Shown: positions 2,985 to 64,000 of the stretch, piece after piece | Position numbering within the stretch: position 1 is the first letter of the stretch | How the letters are laid out: every line of letters starts with the position of its first letter | Origin: Catajapyx aquilonaris | Lineage: Eukaryota | Assembly (NCBI GenBank): GCA_000934665.2 | Contig: KZ538083.1 | Coordinates: 62,001-126,000 of the forward strand | Direction of reading: 5' to 3' | DNA length: 64,000 bases | Notes under the pieces: generated by a model | Told to the model about the DNA's origin: nothing | Seen by the model: only the letters and a program-made list of their open reading frames with translations | The model's database searches: none | Translations under genes and position numbers: made by a program

Positions 2985-4329
2985 TTTTCTATGTTCTACA
3001 TCTAAATAATTAGTGTTAGGATTCTCCCCTGATTGGTGAGTGTTGCTGAGACACACTAGTTCTTGTTGTAATCGCGATGGCGACTGAGTTGCGCATTTTA
3101 GTATTCGTGTGATGTATATAACTGTTAGCGAAAGATTTATGAAGATCTCCGGATGACTGACATATCGTGTCTGCTTTTGAAATATTAAAATGGATTGCCT
3201 CGAAACCTGTCAATGGACTCGTCATCCACAGGTTGGACCACACCTTGTGCTGCATTTACTATTCCTTCATTTCTACGAAAGTAACATAAATCCATGGTTA
3301 GCACATGATGGTCTTACATTATTTTGCACAACCTGACAATCAGGATATGGCCCACACCTTTCCTTAGATCACTAATATTCTCTATAAAATATTTACGATA
3401 GATGAGAAGCACACTAGAGATACGTATACACTATAAGGTCTAAAATAATTAAAGCAGCAACATCATGATTCATAAGTTTATTAATGTCTTAACATTCATT
3501 TGAAAACATGTAATGAAATGAAGCCTGTTTGGAACCAGTGTTAATTTTGTGCAAACTTCCAAGAACAAAGTATAAGCATATCAACTTTCTGAAGCACATG
3601 TGGTTAAAATATGGATTCTTGTCCTGTGATCTCACTCTCAAGCTTGGACCACTAAATTGGACGACCATTTTTATTATGGGCTTTCTAAAATCCACTGGTA
3701 AATGCGTAAATCACTGCCACATTTGGAATGTGAGACCTACAATCTGCAAACTATTACTAGGCCGTTACAGACTTTTATGTGCACTGTCTCATAAAGTGGC
3801 TCTAACTAGTCAGATATGAAATTAACAATTATTCATAAGCCATTGAGAAACATAGCGGGAAAAATAACATAAGCACCTTATATGGTCCTCATCCGTCAGG
3901 TTCATTTCTGCAAATAATATATACTGCATGCTTGTCAGAATGTTGGGATTGTTATTGAAAAAAATTATTATTCCTACGTGTTCCAAACATTGGGCAAGAG
4001 TACTGCCTGTACTACTCATTGCTTGTGATGTAATAATCAAGATGCAAAGTGTATTGCGTTGTTCTGACAGAGTTATCTCATGGGTTTGATTCATGTCTAT
4101 GATAGATTTTTAAAAAAAGTATACACAATGACATTATTACGGAGATAGGCGGTTGAGAAATGATAGAGTTTGACGCACAAAATGTGCTGATGCAAACACC
4201 CTGCATTCTTTTTCTCCCATAATTTTTTGACCAGTATGTTGTCATCCATCAACTAAAAACTTATCCAGTACAAGTAAATAAGGAAGACGGCTTGCCAAGT
4301 GATTAAAAAAGGGCGTGGAGTTCAACAAA

Positions 4330-15671: not shown

Positions 15672-15871
15672 TATAATTTTCATTCATACAACAGACCCGT
15701 AATGGTTGACATGCTGGTTGATCTACTAATGAAGTTGCATATTCATGAGAATCTTTTTCTTGGTTGGTTGCAGTTCTGATAGTTTAACTAGTGTCAAGTT
15801 CATGACGAGTGTTATGTTGTTGTGGCTTGTATTCATAGGCTATCTGTTGCATTTTCAGATCTGCGTAAAAG

Positions 15872-18800
15872 ATGCCTCATCAAGGAAAGGAAAAGAAGAC
15901 GTCGTGCTGGCCTGAGGATGTGGGTATAGTGGCCATCGAGATATATTTCCCATCCCAGTATGTGGACCAGACGGAGCTGGAGCAGTACGATGAGGTGTCT
16001 GCTGGGAAGTACACCATCGGTCTGGGGCAGAACAAGATGGGAGTCTGCAGTGATCGGGAGGACATCAACTCCCTTTGCCTCACTGTCGTGGAGAGACTAA
16101 TGGAGAAGCATCATGTCGGTGAGTATGTGGGAAAACCCCAGGGTGACACAACCGCTTTGCAAGGTTACTAAAATTCAGGAGTGTTATGGCCAGAAGGTAA
16201 TGAAAGTTGCCTGGGTGGGTTAATTAAGTTGTGGGTTTTCCAGGAAAGCTTTCCCGTAGGTTTTTTTACCTTTGTCTTGACATTGAGTGCATTTTTCATT
16301 TTTATTTACTCTCCTCCCTTCTCAGGGATTAGCCGTCAACTACATTTGGCTTACTCTTTCACTTGAATTCCACAGGCAGTGTTAAAATTGATTATCTATT
16401 GCCAATATGTTGCTGATAGATTGTATAAGTTGTTAAATTTTAAATATCAACCAAAGTAGCATTATATCTCGGCTAGATATGTATGATTAGTCGTCTGTTA
16501 ATTCAACATGTTTGTGTGGCTTTTCCAAAGTGAACAGACTATGTGCTCCTTTTGTGACAGAGTTTTACTACTCTATTGTTCCTGCATTGCTGTAACAGAA
16601 ACATTAGGTGCTTGTTGAGTTCATGAGTACATTTCAGTGTGCTTTCGCTACAGGCTTGGCATGACATGTGAAAGTAAGTCTCTCTGTTGGTTCAGGCATG
16701 TAAGACTTGTGATGCTTGAATATGCCATACCAGTCATTATAATTACTAATCATTACTGACGACTATCAAGAATACCAACATGCCTACATGGCATTGTGAA
16801 TGCAGCTATTGAATCAGAATTTGTCTAGGTTCATATAATTTGTTTGCCCTACGTAAATTTCAGCACCTTTTCCTCATATATATCACCTAGCTGATCTAGT
16901 TCAAACAAAAAGTTTCTTGACTTCAAGGTGTTGCGCAGGGCAGATTGCACCATTGCGAGTGTCGCCTTAATTCCAAGGGTGATCATTGTTATAGCTGTTA
17001 GGCCACAATTAATAAAAATGGTAACCTCAGGGTCCAAGGCCACACCAGCTGCAGTGCAAGCAAACCTTACCATTTCTTGTTGTCACTCCTACATCCCATT
17101 TCCCTCCAACTGCAATAAATTATTTAAATGCCTTTGCTGCGTATGATTGCCAAGTATCACACATTTTTGCATTCTTTATAGGTTATGAGAACATTGGCCG
17201 CTTGGAAGTTGGCACCGAGACCCTATTGGACAAATCTAAGAGCGTGAAGACTGTCTTGATGCAGCTGTTTGAGGAGAGTGGCAACCGGGATGTTGAGGGT
17301 ATTGACACCACCAACGCCTGCTATGGTGGGACAGCTGCCCTGGTCAACGCCCTCAACTGGGTGGAATCCTCTGCCTGGGACGGACGCTATGCCCTGGTAG
17401 TTTGTGGGGACATAGCTGTCTATGCCTCTGGAAGTGCACGACCAACTGGAGGGGCTGGCGCTGTTGCTATTCTGGTGGGTCCCAATGCTCCGCTGGTGGT
17501 GGAGAGAGGGACGCGTTCATCTCACATGCGGCATACCTATGACTTCTATAAGCCTGACATGGAATCTGAGTACCCACGAGTTGACGGAAAGCTGTCTATT
17601 CAGTGTTACTTGGCAGCCCTTGACAACTGCTATTGGGAATTCTGCCGTAAGACAGAGGAAAGGGCTGCGTTGGAAGGCAAGAAGGAGAGAGTGACGCTTG
17701 AAAATTTCGATGGCCTTCTGTTCCACTCACCCTACTGCAAACTGGTCCAAAAGTCACTGGCAAGGCTTGTGTACAATGACCTCATGCGTGCCCAAGATGC
17801 TGAAGAGCTGAACAGGAGGTTTCCTGGGATGGAAAAGTTCAGGAAGGCCAGGATGGAAGACACCTATGAGGACAGGGACCTGGAGAAGGCGATGGTGTCC
17901 TTCTCAGCACCCGTGTTCCAGCAGAAGACGCATCCCTCACTCCTGCTTGCAAACCAGATTGGAAACATGTACACTGCTAGCCTTTACGGGAGTCTCATTG
18001 CTTATCTCATCAGGTGAGGGTGTTTTTCATGGAGCATCAATTGTCTTTTATACATATAATAGAGGCATGTTAAAATGTTAACCGTATTTGCAATTCTGTG
18101 TCTTTTCTCGTGCAGCAAGTCAGCACACGCACTTGCTGGAAACCGCCTGACCCTCTTCTCATACGGTTCGGGCTTGGCATCCACCATGTTTGCAATTCGA
18201 ATTAGCTCAGAATCTGGCCCCAACTCGGCCTTGTCTCGCATGTGCCAGAGCCTAGCAGACATCAAGAGGAGATTAGAAGCCAGGACCAAGATGTCTCCTG
18301 CAGACTTTTCTACCATGATGCAGAGGAAGGAGGAAGTCCTACATAAAGGTATGCAAACTAACTTGCAACATGCAATTATTTTCGTTGGGGGTCTCAATTT
18401 AGTGGCACACAGCAAATTTGGCAAAAAAAAAAGGTTGTGCATAAGAGATGTAACTGGATTTAAGCAGCGAATTAAAAGTTAGTCAATCTCACTTAATTTT
18501 GCCATAAAGAGCTTATCTGCAGTAGGTAGACATCAATACTGCATTTCTGTTGACATTGAACATACTCCAAGGAATAATGGGGCTAATCTTATGCATTTGA
18601 AATTGTTGCAACTACACCAAAGAACATCTAACAAATAACTTTTTCCTACATTAGTTCCATACACTCCGAGTGCACCCACATCTGGCCTGTTCCCGGGTAC
18701 ATGGTACCTGACACAAGTGGACTCTGAGCATCGCCGGACGTACGAGTACACCCCACATGACTCGATGAATGGAGCAAAGTATGAGCTGCGTGCCGGTGTG

Positions 18801-19554: not shown

Positions 19555-21089
19555 CTAGTCCAAGAGGTTGATTGGAAGTCGAGGAGACTTTTGAGTTTTA
19601 CGTGGGATATTGGGTGTCCCCGGGGCAGACCTCTTGGGCTGATGTCCTTGTGCCCGTGCGGCAGAGGTGCTTGGGCCAGCACGAGGAGGTGGCATCATGT
19701 TTTGCCCCTGATTGTTCAAGTTATTACCAGTGATAGATCGCCCTGGAGCTACATTCCGGCCTGTCCCCAGGTTAACACCCCCAGTTCCATCTTCAGAGTT
19801 CAGGATCGAGCAGATGACGCGCTTGATTTCTAGGTGCTTTGAATACAGGCTCGCGTATTCATTGAGAAGCTCAGACAGTTTCCTTTCCAACTCTCCCATT
19901 ATCTTGAATACTTCATCATCTTGCTTCTTTGTCTGTATCTCCTTGAGCTCGAAGCTCTCTGCAATCTGAAGTTACAAGTGAACAATTGGAATGCAACTTG
20001 GGGTCATTGACCTCAACACTGTGATTTTATACCATTTCACTCAGCTTAGCCCCCTTGGCTCTTCGCCCTTCAGTACATTCCTTCGTCTTGTTGATGAGCT
20101 GCTTGAAGAGACTGTTAGTCATTCCCTGCATGGCCTGGATTTTTTTCTGTCCAGGCAAATCCCATGACCTAGAACAAGCATGTGAAGTGTGTTGTATGAT
20201 ATGCAAACAAACCACTGTTTCATGGTAACTGAAGTTACTGTCATTGACCCTACCCCAAGCCTACCCTATCCAAATGAGACCACTACTAATATTTGCAAAA
20301 CTGTCTCATACACTGCTAAATAACTGCAAATTCAAGGAGATGGACAACTACGTGATCAACTGGTGCTCTGTTTTGGGGGAAAACACATTCAGAAGAGCCA
20401 ACTCACATTTTCAAACCCTCTTTGCATTGCTCAAGCTTGTGAAGCAGCACAAAATGATGCAGTGTGCATCTCTGTGATTCAACTAAGAATTATGTAAGTG
20501 AATGTGCAGAAGAGTTCACAAGTTGGGCAAAGCTGCTTCTAATGTTTGACCTTCTGAGCTACCAACTAAAGCGTTTGGGATGTGGCAACACAGATTGTAA
20601 GGCAGACTTGTGTGCATGCAGAATTCCAAACCCAAGCCCCAAGCCTAAAGCGGTTCACAACACAATTGTTGCCAGAGTTAACAATCCAGATGTGTTAAAT
20701 GCAGGTAGACTGAAGTACTGTACCACTTGATTCAAATGTGAATCATTTCATCTTCCCTGTAAGAAGTGCCTTGCGTACATGCTCCTATGTGAGAAAATTA
20801 AGTAAAATCTCTAACGTTAAATGGCAACATGAAACTTCTGCAGTCGTGCTGTAGATTCTAACTCGAGGCTCTCTTTTGCATATTCCACGAATAGTAGTAG
20901 TCATGAACAAATGCGCATGGCTTCAAGAGACGGCTTTTTTAATGCTCATATGCAGTGTTCTCATGCATTATAAGCACGTGGGAGGCGAGACAAGTACCGT
21001 GCAGTCATATCATCCTCTTCTTGTTCATCGGGCTGCTGGTAACTCATCGCTTGACCTCCAGGCGGCTGCACCCACCTTCCACGGTCCAT
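19555..21089 (-). CDS. Uncharacterised ~212-aa coiled-coil protein; coding exons 21089-20998, 20168-20033, 19965-19555 (probable 5' UTR exon ~21357-21560)
   Basis: Three exons join in frame via GT-AG: MDRGRW...MTAR|SWDLPG...LSEM|IAESFEL...LLD*. Helical heptad-like middle, Pro/Arg-rich tail, AATAAA on - at 19509-19514. No family recognised. Confidence 0.65.
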
Positions 21090-21569
21090 CTTTGCACAGA
21101 CAGCGACGTTGAGTTGATGCTAACAGCAAACTACAACACCAAAAAATAACATTAGTTCATTAATCACTGGTTAATCCAGTACATCTTTTCCTTGATTACA
21201 ATTGGTCATACATCTGGCAGTGATTGTTTGAGTCATACTGTGCGACATGGTTTTAACCAATAAATGTATTAGGGTGAACTTCCACCCAAATATTGTCAGA
21301 CTAAAGGAAAGTGCCTGAACCGGCCTGAACCAGTGTTCCAAAGATGGTGAGCTTACTTCTTTCAGGGCAGCCCCTAACTTCGGCGCCTCCAGCCAGCTAC
21401 AAATCCGGAGTTGACTTCCCGGCTGTACCCGTAATGCCAACCACCGCTATTTCTTCTCGTAAAGGACCAACACTTGGGTAGGATTTCAGGCCGGATCCTT
21501 TCCCCCTCGAGCAGACAACAACTCTTCTCCGGTCGAACGTCGAAGACTCTTCTCATCCAAGCCGCGCGT

Positions 21570-21610
21570 TCGAACACGTCACGTGACCAAATACGTGACG
21601 TAATCATGAA
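21570..21610. promoter_or_regulatory. Palindromic E-box (GTCACGTGAC) promoter element
   Basis: GTCACGTGAC at 21578-21587 with a second ACGTGACGT nearby, immediately upstream of the minus-strand orphan gene's first exon. Confidence 0.5.
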
Positions 21611-22855
21611 TTAATATGGCACAATCGGAATATACCTCTGATAAGCAACATTTTATTTATTTAATAATGTAACTTGGTAATTTAAAAATGTAAAATTACT
21701 AGAGTAATTTAAGAGCAGCACAATTTGGAGCTGGCAACATGTGTGGGGTGGCGCCAAAATGGCGCCGGGTTTTGTGAGGTTCTGATGGCTCGGCTGGTGA
21801 TGAAGTCGAATTTTGGAAGCCGAACGATCAACGAAGGACAGAGAGGCGAACCCTGCAGATTGCCAAGATGCTGAGGATCAACCAGCAGGTACCGGTATAC
21901 ACCCTGGGTCACAACTTGAAACACGCTTCTATACTTATAGGTATGATAATTATGCAACTATAATGTTACAGAAGCATCTCCATTGAGTTTAAACAAGTTT
22001 AAACCAGGTCTGTGCTCTATTTCTTGGTAGGCTACAGTTGAGAGAGTTTAGATCCAGGTCATGAGGTGTTGGAAAACACAAACATGTTAAAAGTTTCATT
22101 TGTGAGGCACCAGACAAGTTAATAACTTTTCAGTGATTCTCAGGTAACTTGGATATTTACTGTTTCATTATCTGAAAGTGCAATTTAAATACATTACGGA
22201 CTTGAGACTGACACACCTTCCTTGCAGATTCATGCAATTACACCATTTAAAAATTGAAACAAACCAAATGTGCGAAGAAAGACTGTATTGTCACTAACTG
22301 TGAAAAAATTATCATACATTCAGTAAATCTTGAACACTGCAAAAAAAATTGTGAATGAGATAATAATGAGCCCTGCATGTCTTCAGAAAGAGGGCGAAAT
22401 GCTGTACAACATCACAAGCTGAATAATCATGCACAGTAGCATAACAATTATAAAAGTAAGTTAACCTAAGGCTCACAAAATTAATCTGACACTGCTTCAT
22501 TGGCACATTCACACATGTAAGTTACCTAATGTCATGAGCATGAGGTTAGCAAGTTGCAACTAGCAAGTGGAATTGATGGGCTTTCACTAGCTGGGTGACT
22601 GATGTCTTTTTCATGTGTATCGAAGTAGGCAGCATGTGATGCATGCAGCACATTAACTTTAATGCATTTGTGTTGTAGAGCTGTCCTACCCTGCCTAGGG
22701 AAACGCACACAACCTCACTTACTACAATGTCACTAACCAAATGCTGATGGTGGTACACATGCTCACTTGAACAACTCTGAGGAGGATAAAAAATATCTAG
22801 CAGATTTTAGCTTCCTGGTGCCAAAACTCTGCAGAGAGAGAAAAAAAAGGACAGC

Positions 22856-54782: not shown

Positions 54783-55255
54783 AAATGACCATAAATTGTG
54801 AAATTACATATGTTCCATTATATGTTTGTGCTGTCTGATGCTACCTAATGTTACAGTAGGCATCATGTTGCTCATTTTAACTTGTTAAGCCATTGTTACG
54901 TTATTGTTGTAAATATATATACGCACGTTCAGACCTGCTTATAATGTTTCTGCCTTGAGCGACAATAATCGACGGACAATAAAAGGCTGCTGAGTTAAAC
55001 TCACATTATGTGGCTATTTATTGAGTAGATTAGACGCGCTCGAGACGCGATCCTGATGACGCCGCGCTACCCAGGCACAGTTCAAAAAATGGCGCCACAT
55101 ATGGCTTCTCTCCCACATATTAATCCGAGTAGCAACTACTCGATAGTATCATTTCGCACTATCCATCGGAGAGAAGCAGTTTCTTCAGTCGCCTGCGTTT
55201 GTTTCTCCGCCGATTGACCTTTTGTGGTTGACCCGAGTTGACCTGACCCGGCAAG

Positions 55256-56419
55256 ATGCGTCGCAAGGCGGGGGTGGGTGCGATCCACAAGCAGAAGCAG
55301 ACCCAGGAGAAGTACAAGGACAAAGGGACCGAGCTGCAGGAGCTGCAGTTGGAGGAGGTGAGACCCATGCCGACCCAGGCAAAGTTTGTTTGTTCGTTTG
55401 TCCATTTCATGCCCGTTTTATACCTATTTCGTACTCGTACAATGCCAATTGATGTCCCATTTTGTACCACTGCGAAGAACTAGTTCCCTGCTAGTGCTCT
55501 GTATAAGTCATCGAATAACAGCTCCAGTTATAGCGGTAACAGCAGTGGATATTGGATATGCTCTCTTTTGACCTGCAGATGTCTCGACAACTTGAGGTGT
55601 TTCGTGGTAACCTGGAGGAATTTGCTTCCCGTCACAGACAGGAAATTCGTAAAAGCCCACAGTTTCGACGGCAGTTTCAAGAGATGTGTGCGTCAATTGG
55701 GGTCGATCCACTTGCGTCTGGAAAAGGTATATTGAGAAGGGTCTTATAGGTTCTCTTGATCGGCTGCTGTGATTCTGTAGGATTCTGGTCTGAGCTGTTG
55801 GGTGTGGGTGACTTTTACTATGAGCTTGGAGTGCAGATAATTGAGGTGTGCCTTGCCACTTGCCACCGTAACGGAGGCCTGATCACGTTAGATGAACTCA
55901 GGACTAGGCTTATCAATGCCCGAGGGAAGAGTAAACATCACCAAGAAATTACCAAGTTAGTATCAGATGTGTACTACTTTCTAATGGCACTGTTGCGGGA
56001 GTTTCATTATCTTGCCTTTTTGTAGTGACGATCTCCTAAGAGCCATTAAAAAGCTGCGTGTTCTTGGAAATGGCTTTCAAAATCATTCGTTGGGTAGTGG
56101 AAAGCACTTAATCCAGTCTGTGCCTGGTGAACTCAGCATGGATCACACGGCCATCCTACAGCAGGCAGAGTCCACGGCCTGGGTGACGGTATCCAAATTA
56201 CAGAAGAATCTTGGTGGGTTCTGCTTTTATTACTGCTTGTAGATTTGAAATGTGATGGAATTATAACTTGGACACCTGACAGGTTGGGAAGAGGATAGAG
56301 CCAAGCGCTCCTTGGAGTACATGGTGAAGGAAGAACTCGCCTGGGTGGATACGCAGAATCCGACCGAAGTCTCCTACTGGTTTCCTAGTCTTTTTGCAGC
56401 CTGTGCAGCTGCTAAGTAA
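55256..56419 (+). CDS. SNF8: ESCRT-II subunit SNF8/Vps22, ~249 aa; exons 55256-55357, 55579-55726, 55781-55955, 56026-56213, 56283-56419
   Basis: [87 protein letters not shown]. Confidence 0.97.
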
Positions 56420-56946: not shown

Positions 56947-59900
56947 TTATTTGAGAACAAACTGATCTGGCATGCTGAGAGTAAGATGGAAGACATCTTC
57001 AACAGTGGTAGGTCCATCTGTGAAAAAGGGAAAAGGGAGTTATATGGATTAGTCATGGATTAATTTGACCATATGAAAATAATTAACAGGTTCAGTGAAA
57101 GGAGCCTGGATCAGTTGACATTACGCAATTGTCCAGTACTTGCAATGAGCCCTGAAATTCAATGTAAACAAAGCATGCTTACTCATCTGGTACCAATCTG
57201 TGCGTCCCTGCTCTCCTCTTGCGGAATCTAGAGCATCTCTCATGGCAAATATTACTGTGCATGAGGTGCAAAGTGGGGCTTCTCCAGTGCTCTTAGACCT
57301 TAGAACACCCAATGGATTAGGAGCTTTTTTCAGGAAGGTCAAGAAAAACTGCTCCGGTATGTCTCGAGCAGTAGGAGGCTTGTACTCCCAGGTGTTGTGG
57401 GTCAGCAGTTCTCCAGTATTGACATCAAAACGGAATTTTTCAGTAAGCCACATTCCCAGGCCCATAACGAAGGCACCTTCAACCTGTCCAACGTCGACCA
57501 GTGGACTCATGCTCATTCCAACATCTTCAAGTATGTCTGCTCTTCTTATCTGTTAGGAGATGTCATTGTATTTCCAATTTCACCAATGTGAAAATGTGTT
57601 GGTAGTGTTCAATGACTTACGATGGTTTGTGCTGTGAGCATATCCATCTCAACTTCCATGGCGGTTATGGCGTACACGTGATATGTCTTGGGAGGATCTC
57701 CATACTTATACATGTACTGGGCCACTAAATTAACACCAGAACTGTGGCATTCAGCAATCAATTGTTGCCAAGTTGGGTTCTTCATTCTGTCCCGTACTGG
57801 TTTGATGCGCTCGTTCAACATTTTGCAGCACTGTTGCGCAGCCTGGGTAATTAATAAAGAGAAAATTATATGGAAGCTGGAAAAATGGTTTCATAATGAA
57901 AATGATCATGTGGTGGAAGAATCGCTTATCAGTGCTCAATTTCAGCTAATTTGTACGACGACATGGATTGCATTTGCTGTTACTGTACTGGTACTTATAA
58001 ATACTCCCAGAGTATGTCCTTTTGGTGTAATGAAACTTACATATGCATTAAGATCACTGGCCATGGCTGCTCCTGTGACACCACTGTTTGCTCCGACCAA
58101 ATTGTCCGCTGCCTTCACTTTGACCAAATCAAGTGGGATGCCCAGCTCGTAGGCAACCACCTGAGCCACTTTGGTATTGATCCCTTGGCCCATTTCAATT
58201 CCACCTATTGAAATGCCTACTGTTCCATCTTCATGGTAGATGGCAACAAACGCTGGGTACGGTATGCCGTAATGCACTGGCCATCGCATTGGCATTAGAG
58301 CCAAGCCCTTCTTTCTCCAGCGATTTTCCTGAAGGAAGAATTGGCAAGGTTAGCATCCTAACAACTTGTGTTGTAAAAAAACAGCAGACATGTAACAATA
58401 TGGCGCTTTTAAAGTTTCATTAGTGTTTGTGTGTGCAAATTCAGTTTTGTCACATGGCTCTTTTCCAATAAAGGTCTAATCACCTTATTGAACTTGTCAA
58501 TTTCAGCTCTGCGACCCTTGTAATTGGATGAGTCTTCAACGGCCTTCTTCATCTCAGGGATGGGAAAGAACTCATCCAATTCTTCAAATGGTTTTATGTT
58601 ACCCATAAGGTCCATAGTGATCAGCTTATCTCCTGGTTTCATCATGTTGGCTTCACGAACTTTCCAAGGATCCAGCTTTGTTTCTCGAGCAATATGCTCC
58701 ATTATAGTTTCAATCAGAGCAAGTCCCTGCATAGTACCTGAAATATATTTATTTAGCTTGATTAGTTTGAACAGGATGTTATTTAGTAGTGACACTACTA
58801 GGCTTCAGTTGTGTTGTAGTACCGTACTGCGCAATATTACAATGACATGTGTTTGCTGTGTGAACACATTAATCTGCAGATTTTACCAGTTTGTTCACTT
58901 TGGCAGCTATGTAGACGCTTCTTATTATCGTAAGTATTTTTGCATGAAAGTAACTTGCTAATTGTCACTAACCAGGTGATCGGCAGAATACATTGGTTGC
59001 TGTGTTTGTCAGGACTCGGCCTGCTGGCATTTTCCAGTTCGTAGCATCGTAGCAGTTCTGAGCTGTAACTGCTGCGTAAAAGGATGTTGACTCATTGTAG
59101 TCAATTCCAGTGTCACAAATAAGGCTGCTCTTTAAGCTCTGAATCTTTCCAGTTTTGTCATCTACCACAACCTAATGATTACAAAAATAGGTCAATGTGC
59201 ATTTTATTTGATAGCCCATATTCATACCTCATATTTGCACAAGTATGGTTCACGCCTTCCACACATCTTCATGTTGGTGTCAATGTCAAGTACCATCCTG
59301 ATGGGTCTATTTAGTTTGTATGCAGCTAGTGCACATCCAGCAGCAACCACAGATGCACGGGAGATCTTGGCACCATATGCGCCTCCTACTCTTTTCACTC
59401 TCACATTCACTCTGTCAAAGAGGAGATACCATCATGTTGTGCTGCATTCTTTACAACCACTGGGATGTATACATACGTGTTGTTTGGAATTTTCAACATC
59501 TGAGCCACACAATTCTGCACGTGGTCAATCCACTGAGTGGCCGAGTACACGTCGAATCCATCATCTGACGGGACACAGTAACCGACCTGCTTCTCAATGC
59601 TGAAGTGGTACTGATGCGCTGTCTCAAGTTCACCCTTGATGGTTTTGGTGCTTGTGATCAGTGGAGGATTGTTCGGATCTGGTTCTGGGCCCATGGTCGG
59701 TTCTCCAGATATAGTTCCACTCTCCATTTTGCCATGCTTCAGAGCATCTTTGATGGTCAATATTGGTTTCTTGATGTCGGTGTAGTCCACCTTCACTTTC
59801 AATGCAGCTTGGGTAGCTAGTGTTGGGCAGTCTGCCACGATGAGGCCCACGGGTTGGCCAGCGTACACCACTTTTCCACTGCACAGGATCTAAATATGAA

Positions 59901-62900
59901 CAGAAAGGTATAATTTATTATCGGATGTAAAGACCTGCTGTTGAACTACTGACCTCCTCTGGATACATTCCCATCAACTGAACATTGTTCATTCCAGGGA
60001 TGTCTTCAGCACGGTAGAAGGCAACTACACCATCCATTTTCTAATATGCCGATATTAACCGATATTAAGTGATTGGAATAAAGATCATAGCAGAATACTA
60101 ACCAAGGCTTCAGAAGGATCAATCTGTTGAATCTTTGCATTTCCTTGCGTTGTAAGTACAAACGCGGCATGCAGTTCATTAGGACGGTGAGGCATGTCAT
60201 TGACGTACTCTGCTTCTCCTGAAGAATGACAATGTGCAATTAATACTAGCAGTGTCATTTAATTAATGATACCAACCTGAACATTGAGCCAATGCTTCCA
60301 GCTTGACCACAGCCTTGCTGAGAGGCCAGGTGCTTTCATCGGTGTCAAAGTCTTGCTTTCCTGAGGACAATCCTCTTTCCAAGTGGTCAGCTCCTGTCTT
60401 CAGACGGGGACCAACAACATCTCTCAGAACAAAGAGCACAAACTTGTAGAACAGTGCCAGGGACAGATTTTTCCGAAATTCTGGTGACGATTCAACTGGA
60501 GACGGTTCCGGTACAATTTCTTCTGACAAAACCTTGATGGCTTCGTTTAGTGTATCCTGATTGTTCAGCTGCTTTCCGTTCAAGTATTGCTCAGTTTTAG
60601 TTGCGTGAATCTGCATAGAAAATCACATATTTGTTATGTAACACACAAACTGTTCATATCTGCACTAGTTCTTACGAAATGTTCCCCGATTCCTCCGTAG
60701 ACAATCCGTGGTTGTTCGGTAATCTGATAGTTTTTAGACGGATCAACTTTAGCCAAGAATCCAGCGTTGACGTAAGCATGTGAAAACTGATATCGTGGCA
60801 GAACCTGGAAAATGTTCTCTGTCAGTCTTACCTGCAACTATTACAGCAAAATCAAAGAATCACCTTAAAAGTCCTCATGAGATATGATCTGTCGAGTTTT
60901 GGAAACGTGAAGCTCAGCAGAATTTTATTTTTCATATCAATTTTGAGGAACTCAGGCATAGTCATTTCCTTGTTTCCATCTAGCAAAAAAAGTCAAGGTA
61001 ATCTGTCAATAAGAAGCGGCGCCATCGTGTCTACTTTTTGTCTATGTACCTTTGGATGCGATAACAACTTTCACTCCGGCTGTTTCAAGCGGTAGGAACA
61101 AATCTGACGAAAATCCTTGAAGTCTATGCTTCATCATGATATTACCCGCCAAGGTTCCAACCTGCGAGAGAAGAATACTAATTCAATATAACAAAAGACA
61201 CGCAAATATTCAATTTTGTAACAAAATTACTAAAAGGAAGAACACTCCAAATAATTATGTAACTGAGAGGCTGAGAGGTAAAAAAAAAGTATTACATCTC
61301 TTATGGCATGACTGGCAAGCTTTTGCAGGTGGTGCAATACAGCTGACAGGTAGCTGTAGTCTTTATTTTGAGTAGTTGCTTCAGCCAAAGTCGTCATTAA
61401 TTCAGATATCGTGACTTCTCCTCCAAGGGTCAAAGGGTCAAGTTTTCTTTCTCTCAGCTCCGGTATGCCATTCAGATCTATGTAAGCATCGTACGGTCCT
61501 TCATGCTTGAATACACCTGTGTAGAGGGTAACGTAAATAAATAAGTAAAATAAATAATAGCTTTATCATATTATATAATATACCAGATGCTGTGTTAGCT
61601 CCAACTAGTCGCACCGACTTGTCCTTTAACTGATCCATGATTTGAAAACATTCTGCCAATTTGGTAGGTCGAAACCATTGAGCACCATCTTTTGATTGTA
61701 TCCACACTGGCAGATTCTCTATTGGTAATTTCTGGCAGCAGTTATCCGGGTTACCGCAGCATCCATTTTTTCCAATGTCCTAGAAGAGTAATAGTTCTTC
61801 CTGAAGTCATCTATTACATGCCAGGAACTCGTGACAGATGCGTGTAAGCCACAAACGACCTCACGTGAGATGCTGCGATAGAGTTGTATATACATGGACC
61901 ACAATACACGCAATGGCAGGGCAAGGGTGGAGTGTACTAGTGACTAATAGTACTAGAGATAGAGCTTTAAAAAAAAGTTAAAAGTCCTACCTCAATATCG
62001 CCGCATCTAAGCTTTATTTGTTCCTTCAGGTCCTCAGATGCGTCGGATGCGAACGATTTAAATGTGTCCAGAATAGGACGGAAGCCGGTACATCTGCATA
62101 TGTTCCCGTCCAGGTTGTCCTCAGCATCTTGCATTGTGAATTTCGGATTCTGTTGCTGCGTGCTGTAACAAAATATTAATAATTATGGAAAATACTGCAG
62201 GTCATACATGGTGCAGTACCTGTTCATAATCATGACCATTCCAGGACTGCAGAACCCGCATTGGGACCCATTGAATTGGGCCAACCGCTTCTGGATCTCG
62301 TGATGACCTTTGCGCTTGTCACCTAGGCCATCGACAGTGGTGATGTCCCATCCGTCGCACAGCATCACCGGAATCAAACACTGCAATTATGATCTTAGCC
62401 AATGACCACATCCTTCTGGAGCCCCACATATTTTGAAATGTACCGGTACGTACCGAGTTGACAGCGCAAACTTTGTCCGTTTTGCTGGGTCTGTCGGGTA
62501 CCCTCGCGGTGACAATACACGCACCGCAGCCTCCTTCACGACATGACACTTTGGTGCCTTTGAAAGCAGCCACATCTCGAATGAAATCCACCAGACGCAT
62601 CCGTGACGAAGTGTTTTGATCCACTGTAATATGTTATCATTACGCACAATGCAATGACATTTTACATAATGTGTGTCCGAACCTGTGAAGTTTTGGCCGT
62701 TTATTCTTAACTTGATGCTGGTCAAAGGTGAATCGTCTCGAACCACGGTGTGGCATTTCAAACACGATCTGGTCCCATCGGGTTTTCTGTCCAAGGGCAA
62801 CCTGGAATTTCTTATAGATATCACTTTCGTGCTTTCGCATAGAAATATTTTTTAGAAATTGTTTTCTAATGGCAATAAAGTTTGTATTTGCCTGCGTTAT

Positions 62901-63507
62901 TTTGAAACCTTTTATTATGCTATTTGGAAGGCCTTGGGGACACCGCCATCGGGGAGTTATTCTCACGAAATTTTTATTAAGGCAATAAACCGCAATATAT
63001 TGTTGAAAGAAACGTACCCTGGTCATAATGCTGGTGTAAAAAGTGGTTGGAATTGATTCCAAACTGATATGAAAGTAGGTAGCCAAAATATGATTAGCAA
63101 AAGTACTTTCACATTCCATTAAATATTACTGTACAGTACTCTATATAGAATATAGCCTGGAGCAAATATTTATTTCACATAATTATAGTCATGTGACAGG
63201 GTGTTTCTTACTAATTAGTAGGTCAGTAAGAGGCTTAAAATATATGAAGTCATAAACAAGAAATAATTAGCTGCGAATTAATTTTAGTGTGGCTGTGTAT
63301 ATGCTCGGGCATTACATGAGGAGGACTGTATAGAGAAAAATTAAATTCAGCATGATTTTATCACTAAACGACACCTTTGAACATCGACGGCATGCAAACG
63401 TCCTTGCATGTTATTAGTGACAAATAAATTAAACGACATGCTACATACTCGGTGCTGCACACTGGACAATTGGTTTGCCACAACTCCTTGCTGGATTGAA
63501 GCCCCAT
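56947..63507 (-). CDS. AOX: Molybdo-flavoenzyme of the xanthine oxidase family, arthropod aldehyde-oxidase type (many small exons; first coding exons 63507-63449, 62801-62683, 62623-62454)
   Basis: 2Fe-2S motifs [34 protein letters not shown] region LVGANTA, GTLAGN; Moco region [42 protein letters not shown] (catalytic Glu). It lacks the XDH-type GGGFGGKE Glu. Confidence 0.9.
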
Positions 63508-64000
63508 TGTGACTCCGAAGTGACTGGAAGAGAACCACCTTGCTAATTGCGACTCCGAAGAAGACAGCCTTGGATAGGCATTACTTGCACATACATACGT
63601 TACCAAGAGAAATGATTGGTAGATGCCTTTTCCTTCCTTCACCTCACAGCACTGACAAGTGATCGCTGAGATTGAGATAGACCAAAGAGCTGGACTGCAT
63701 AACAACAATAAAAAGTAGCATCACGATAATAAAAAGTTGGGTCACATGTGACCTTGGAGCGCCACCTGTCCTAGCACGAATTGCTAGCTTTATTTGCGGA
63801 ACTTAACATTGTCCCATCTGCATTTAACTCCCTGCATGCAAGCCGATTACCCGGAAACAAATTTTTTGCATGCGTAATGACGCACCCACCTTTTTTATTG
63901 GCCACAAAGTCAGAGTGACACTACTGATTAATGGAAGTTCAGTCAAGCCCGTTAGGATATTACATAAACTTGGCCAAATATGTTAGTGCGTAGTAGGTGA

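Follow-up and report, generated by a model that had tools for sequence, protein, structure and literature searches.

A predicted N-myristoylation signal, widespread among hexapod aldehyde oxidases, combined with a local four-cysteine ribbon in Catajapyx aquilonaris

Described aldehyde oxidases and acylated redox enzymes

Insect aldehyde oxidases (AOXs) clear odorants, pheromones and xenobiotics and also make auxin. The Drosophila and silkworm enzymes are called cytosolic in two papers (PMC5817353, PMC7724976), and AOX-type enzymes are described as consisting of two identical subunits (PMC7724976). Myristoylation goes without mention in the available text of these two papers on insect AOX and of one on sawfly auxin synthesis (PMC10380194). 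Likewise, a search for AOX or xanthine dehydrogenase (XDH) together with myristoylation, made in a collection of mostly open-access papers and judged by title and the start of the abstract, returned no acylated AOX or XDH, and a looser search on AOX localization returned nothing relevant among the 25 of 359 matches listed. A working analogy is offered by FSP1/AIFM2 and NADH-cytochrome b5 reductase, redox enzymes that are reportedly targeted by an N-terminal myristate; these are unrelated proteins without molybdenum or Fe-S centers, and acylation has been shown there, whereas it is predicted for the AOX described here.

This AOX is encoded by Catajapyx aquilonaris on the minus strand of a 64,000-nucleotide stretch (positions 62,001–126,000 of contig KZ538083.1), hereafter the window. 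It has the same domain set as Drosophila AOX1 (PDB 7PX0) and insect AOXs, 7PX0 being also the best structural match for a springtail homolog; unlike the window protein, 7PX0 aligns from residue 7 and is without an extension.

Gene structure, transcript and start codon

The gene model comprises 21 coding exons specifying 1329 aa in an open frame without internal stop. Exon-by-exon Pfam scans recover Fer2, Fer2_2, FAD_binding_5, MoCoBD_1 and MoCoBD_2 above or near the cut-off and CO_deh_flav_C below it, such that two 2Fe-2S, FAD and molybdopterin domains lie in a single frame, as in the molybdo-flavoenzymes of the xanthine oxidase family. Within this family, the substrate-binding Glu of XDH, the NAD-binding loop and the catalytic Glu serve as discriminators of AOX and XDH. 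In the window protein, GAKIS aligns with the XDH GGKET, the Glu of the motif being replaced by Ile; the GEAP motif with the catalytic Glu is present; and the NAD-binding loop (FFTGYRK/FxGYR type), which is described for XDH in the available text of PMC7724976, is absent from the matching place. The best solved match of a molybdenum-site exon is Drosophila AOX1, the sole significant match for that exon, and both 2Fe-2S motif sets are complete without the cysteines of the extension. The domain set, the replaced Glu and the absent loop support the AOX identity given in an earlier note on this DNA, and by sequence the gene is an intact, expressed AOX rather than an XDH. Elsewhere in the window, six-frame translations read by eye contain exons at 55100–56020 (+) that we take to be SNF8/Vps22-like, an exon at 15869–16168 (+) presumably like that of HMG-CoA synthase, and a 701-codon single-exon frame at 3209–1107 (−) that we take to be receptor-like.

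No run recorded as RNA was listed, and the only public run holding the region, X1, is of unrecorded library type; its contigs leave out canonical introns throughout the gene, and of the 14 joints listed 12 lie outside the 5′ region, most of them equal to introns of the model. The in-frame joining of exons 63507–63449 and 62801–62683 proposed in the earlier note holds in its coordinates, phase-2 join, GT/AG ends, acaATGG context and translation, and the 63449>62801 junction is found as an exact joint in one X1 contig (depth 4.5), which skips precisely 647 bases with a shorter arm of 30 letters, one below the 31-letter bridging rule. The intron is partly covered in X1 too (depth bins over 63026–63527): unspliced or retained-intron RNA is present beside the spliced form, and the coverage would fit a branch between the two. 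No upstream ATG displaces Gly2; in the spliced leader of this one run, an in-frame TAA at 63602–63600 lies 7 codons 5′ of the ATG, so that in that transcript the start is not extendable upstream and Gly is residue 2. The joined exons translate into an extension of 46 residues ahead of the first 2Fe-2S strand (Table 1).

Table 1. Features of the AOX gene and its N-terminal extension, in window coordinates
Feature	Positions	Strand	Basis and remarks
5′ UTR exon, non-coding	63595..63659	−	5′ end undefined; joint 63523/63595 with 65 letters on shorter side; leader translated
5′ UTR intron, GT..AG, 71 bases	63524..63594	−	Skipped by X1 contigs; leader translation
First coding exon	63449..63523	−	ATG at 63507; holds the MGLQSSK signal and Cys pair 1; copies on C1282 and C1882
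Predicted N-myristoylation signal, codons 1–7 (Gly2, Ser6, Lys7)	63487..63507	−	GXXXS(K/R) match; identical in paralog
First CxxC (Cys14, Cys17)	63457..63468	−	Translation; kept in paralog
Phase-2 intron, 647 bases, interrupting the ribbon	62802..63448	−	X1 contig joint
Second coding exon	62683..62801	−	Remaining ribbon, linker, first 2Fe-2S strand
Second CxxC (Cys33, Cys36), then His37	62753..62764	−	Translation; kept in paralog
Other 19 coding exons	56947..62623	−	2Fe-2S, FAD and molybdopterin domains to the stop; gene model and Pfam matches

N-myristoyltransferases (NMTs) prefer an N-terminal GXXXS(K/R), according to the available text of PMC8689648, and the start of the window protein, G-L-Q-S-S-K with Gly at position 2, matches it in full. 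An NMT gene is found in the genome. The earlier identification of MGxxxSK as an NMT motif is thus borne out by a match that is conserved in a paralog, and Gly2 of the window AOX is likely to be myristoylated.

Paralogs, homologs and the two parts of the extension

Exon 2, exon 3 and a molybdenum-site exon have four matches apiece in the genome and exon 1 has three; these can be resolved into three genes, namely A (in the window), B and C. Gene B is complete on C1882 and occurs again as two halves, the 5′ one on C1282 and the 3′ one immediately upstream of the window; these copies are dS ~0.05 apart and hence alleles or a recent duplicate. The upstream 3′ half (C173:126792–129837), which belongs to a tandem AOX copy, lies at a dN of about 1.5% from the C1882 copy, and together with the C1282 5′ half it may be one gene split across contigs. 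Gly2 and the four Cys, on whose conservation in orthologs the earlier note had made its proposal depend, are unchanged between genes A and B (copy C1882a), as are Ser6, Lys7 and His37, at dS near 1. Over 45 codons, the extension differs from that of C1882a by 9 non-synonymous and 16 synonymous changes (p 6e-6 against neutrality; dN 0.09, dS 0.97, dN/dS 0.09) and is thus under purifying selection; the enzyme body (dN 0.125, dS 1.64) has a ratio no different from it (Fisher p 1.0).

Paralog C, which is sister to A+B (SH-aLRT 88), has neither signal nor ribbon and is transcribed across most of its body. The exon counterpart and its splice acceptor are retained there, with no Cys in that exon; no MG exon is found before the neighboring Med18 gene, and ATGGG is absent from the 1.6 kb separating the first matched exon of paralog C from Med18. 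X1 contigs leave its 5′ end uncovered, and its start is a predicted one, probably an ATG within the exon matching window exon 2. The gene (C1882:13140–18361) stands head to head with Med18 (about 20100–21650). The tree would fit a gain in A+B or a loss in C alike, and the shared acceptor hints at loss.

A profile search gave 5691 relatives, the best 120 of which, a sample near the springtail and amphipod seeds, were examined; 19 with truncated or fused starts were dropped, and 101 arthropod homologs with complete starts were kept, with the proviso that annotated starts are possibly wrong in either direction. Among these, 22/101 begin with MG, and Ser6 is present in 20 of the 22 versus 15 of the 79 others (Fisher p 7.6e-10, kinship ignored), no comparable excess being seen at positions 3–5 and 7–10 in the 101 homologs. 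As related proteins share starts, sister pairs were compared: in 14 pairs, one with the window protein and from a tree without 6 long fused rows, Ser6 is confined to the Gly2 member in 10 pairs and to its partner in 1 (p 0.012). All 20 MGxxxS proteins are from springtails or insects (springtail, cockroach, locust, true bug, sawfly and ant), and the malacostracan clade includes none of them. Positions 3–5 take 15 forms among the 20, and the length of sequence ahead of the first domain is variable, as would be expected of a processing signal. These proteins, e.g., those from Folsomia (P0024), Schistocerca (P0067), Euura (P0108), Solenopsis (P0121) and Nezara (P0078), resemble the window protein in having Gly2 and Ser6 before the 2Fe-2S domain and are 41–46% identical to it; the C. 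aquilonaris genes join the springtail and insect AOXs in one moderately supported clade (SH-aLRT 87; 40 selected homologs). They differ in lacking the Cys pairs and in their shorter linkers, with Lys7 in none and Arg7 in one, and their database names leave acylation unmentioned.

Thus, the extension of the earlier note is shared only in part by other arthropod AOXs: the signal recurs (20/101 with MGxxxS), whereas a CxxC pair ahead of the 2Fe-2S domain is found in 0/101. The MGxxxS start can be seen as widespread among hexapod AOXs and not peculiar to the window gene. Its absence from 79/101 homologs and one of the three genes of this genome, paralog C, indicates that AOX function is independent of it. 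It is likely an old hexapod AOX signal that was repeatedly lost; alternatively, it may have been gained repeatedly. Other kinds of start are also seen in the sample. In one AOX from a plant bug and one from a wasp (P0085 and P0019), MGxxxS lies a few residues inside an annotated start that is perhaps placed too far upstream. Several proteins without Gly2 from mayflies, a stick insect and a mosquito (P0075, P0093, P0120, P0010, P0096) have short aromatic/hydrophobic starts, e.g., MW-x-x-(I/L)-F, possibly a membrane anchor of a different kind in place of myristate. In shrimp, crab and amphipod AOXs (e.g., P0006, P0021, P0022, P0032), a MAPQ start is common instead of MG.

The ribbon has the CxxC-x15-CxxC pattern read in the earlier note, i.e., four Cys in two CxxC pairs that are conserved in the paralog and form a predicted zinc site. 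In the homolog sample, it appears confined to this genome, in the two independent genes A and B. It is no chance product, given that CxxC-x(10–20)-CxxC occurs in 0/2930 46-residue blocks of homolog bodies and in 0/804 stop-free six-frame blocks of the window. Its resemblance to the SSSCA1/Auto_anti-p27 type (PF06677), suggested earlier, does not withstand comparison. The two are alike in the CP at pair 1, the PL motif after it and the Gly before pair 2; however, in the 24 archaeal Auto_anti-p27 ribbons (from 28 loci) of a home-made profile, which is distinct from the Pfam model, the inter-pair spacing is 12 in 22/24 and 13 in 2/24 as against 15 in the window ribbon, and the LLxG helix preceding their first pair is absent here. 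On this profile, the scores are 7.7 (window ribbon) and 10.8 bits, which 122 and 34 of 1000 Cys-fixed shuffles reach, while TFB members score a median of 11.2. Ribbons of the TFIIB/TFB/BRF1/RRN7 kind (PF08271, PF11781) share with the window ribbon the CxxC-x15-CxxC spacing (15 in 28 of the 30 archaeal TFB ribbons profiled), a Gly turn before pair 2 and a hydrophobic-acidic tail. Yet on the TFB profile, where 31 and 4 of 1000 Cys-fixed shuffles reach the scores of 10.7 and 15.6 bits, the window ribbon is not separated from generic four-Cys fingers, the 8 unrelated GATA fingers profiled scoring higher (median 19.7), and for this reason no family claim is made: it is best described from its sequence as a generic ribbon with TFIIB-like spacing, assignable to no family.

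Exon shuffling from candidate donors within the genome is not supported: its SSSCA1 gene is at another locus, with an intron in phase 0 versus phase 2 at the window ribbon, and the scores of its BRF1-like and RRN7-like ribbons are reached by 499 and 45 of 2000 shuffles. Pfam has no family for either of the two exons scanned singly (half a ribbon each). A protein-database search with the ribbon exon alone, again half the ribbon, gave 2 candidates, none scored, and 4 matches that are unrelated repeats; with half-ribbon queries, matches in the PDB came only at E > 1, those in the ESM Atlas (0.78–0.81), all small Cys-rich clusters, are leads only, and 219 pattern matches in metagenome contigs included no relative. 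The ribbon itself was likely acquired later, in this lineage.

Membrane tethering and its alternatives

Myristate by itself is a weak membrane binder. The reading favored here, with a probability of roughly 0.55, is that the conserved extension, myristoylated on Gly2 and bearing a four-Cys zinc ribbon, keeps the AOX reversibly bound to a membrane, close to lipid-soluble aldehydes. Upon removal of Met1, the NMT of the genome would acylate Gly2, while Cys14/17/33/36 would bind one zinc. As the subunits are two and identical, the dimer would carry two acyl chains, whose avidity could offset the missing basic patch. The ribbon would act as a folded spacer or as a partner-binding second signal that selects the membrane, and the anchored enzyme would oxidize membrane- or droplet-partitioned aldehydes, releasing H2O2 or superoxide locally.

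The same acylated Gly2 might also be carried by a mostly soluble enzyme, in which the acyl chain serves stability or engages either a protein partner or a chaperone that binds lipids, and the ribbon is a protein-interaction module. This is a possible reading, though a distinctly less probable one: stability and protein interactions are named among the roles of myristoylation in the available text of PMC8689648, most of the 20 homolog signals are without a basic cluster or nearby Cys, and residues 2–20 of the window protein hold one basic residue only. The two acyl chains that a homodimer would bear, and the reported use of myristate for targeting by FSP1 and cytochrome b5 reductase, speak against it.

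Alternatively, the extension cysteines might be S-palmitoylation sites providing a second membrane signal rather than zinc ligands. Myristate and palmitate are commonly paired. The sperm hexokinase is reportedly a case in point, and the ribbon profile scores are weak. Nevertheless, in the two CxxC pairs the first Cys is followed by Pro and the second pair is preceded by an Asp-Gly turn, both aligned to positions of the ribbon consensus, and the Cys lie 12–34 residues from Gly2, beyond the usual distance for dual acylation, which makes palmitoylation improbable. Somewhat less probable again is a four-Cys site that binds iron in rubredoxin-like fashion or forms a redox switch beside the 2Fe-2S centers, sensing the H2O2 made by the enzyme or acting as an extra electron carrier. 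Four-Cys ribbons and rubredoxins do have a common knuckle fold, and His37 is unchanged in the paralog, with weak cytochrome c3 matches (E 1.1); but these matches are at chance level and both 2Fe-2S motif sets are already complete, and a variant with c-type heme bound at the CxxCH is remote, heme c being attached in the mitochondria in animals. That the extension is an unmodified linker of no special role, or that another start is mainly used, is very unlikely: the junction on one contig of one run, the partly covered intron and a transcribed paralog C without both features would allow it, but it sits poorly with the purifying selection on the extension, the upstream in-frame stop and the Gly2–Ser6 coupling across hexapods.

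Returning to the favored tethering, hexapod AOXs, although termed cytosolic, are likely membrane-tethered in the MGxxxS subset, as judged by their starts. A broader proposition, for which the odds are about even and which runs counter to the prevailing picture of a cytosolic family, is that hexapod AOXs were ancestrally N-myristoylated and lipid-anchored, the anchor being kept, lost or replaced paralog by paralog, and that the ribbon was added here as a targeting module, in an architecture unseen in the other xanthine-oxidase-family proteins sampled. What is new beyond the first reading of the locus is that MGxxxS is a recurrent start of hexapod AOXs and the ribbon a local feature. The genome itself offers a natural comparison, with AOX paralogs that have the extension and one that does not, and recombinant AOXs would be without the modification when produced in bacteria or with an N-terminal tag. 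The in vivo substrates of insect AOXs are called unclear (PMC5817353). If the favored reading is true, a whole subset of AOXs would work at membranes or lipid droplets, which would bear on the aldehydes that these enzymes meet and on the site at which H2O2 is released.
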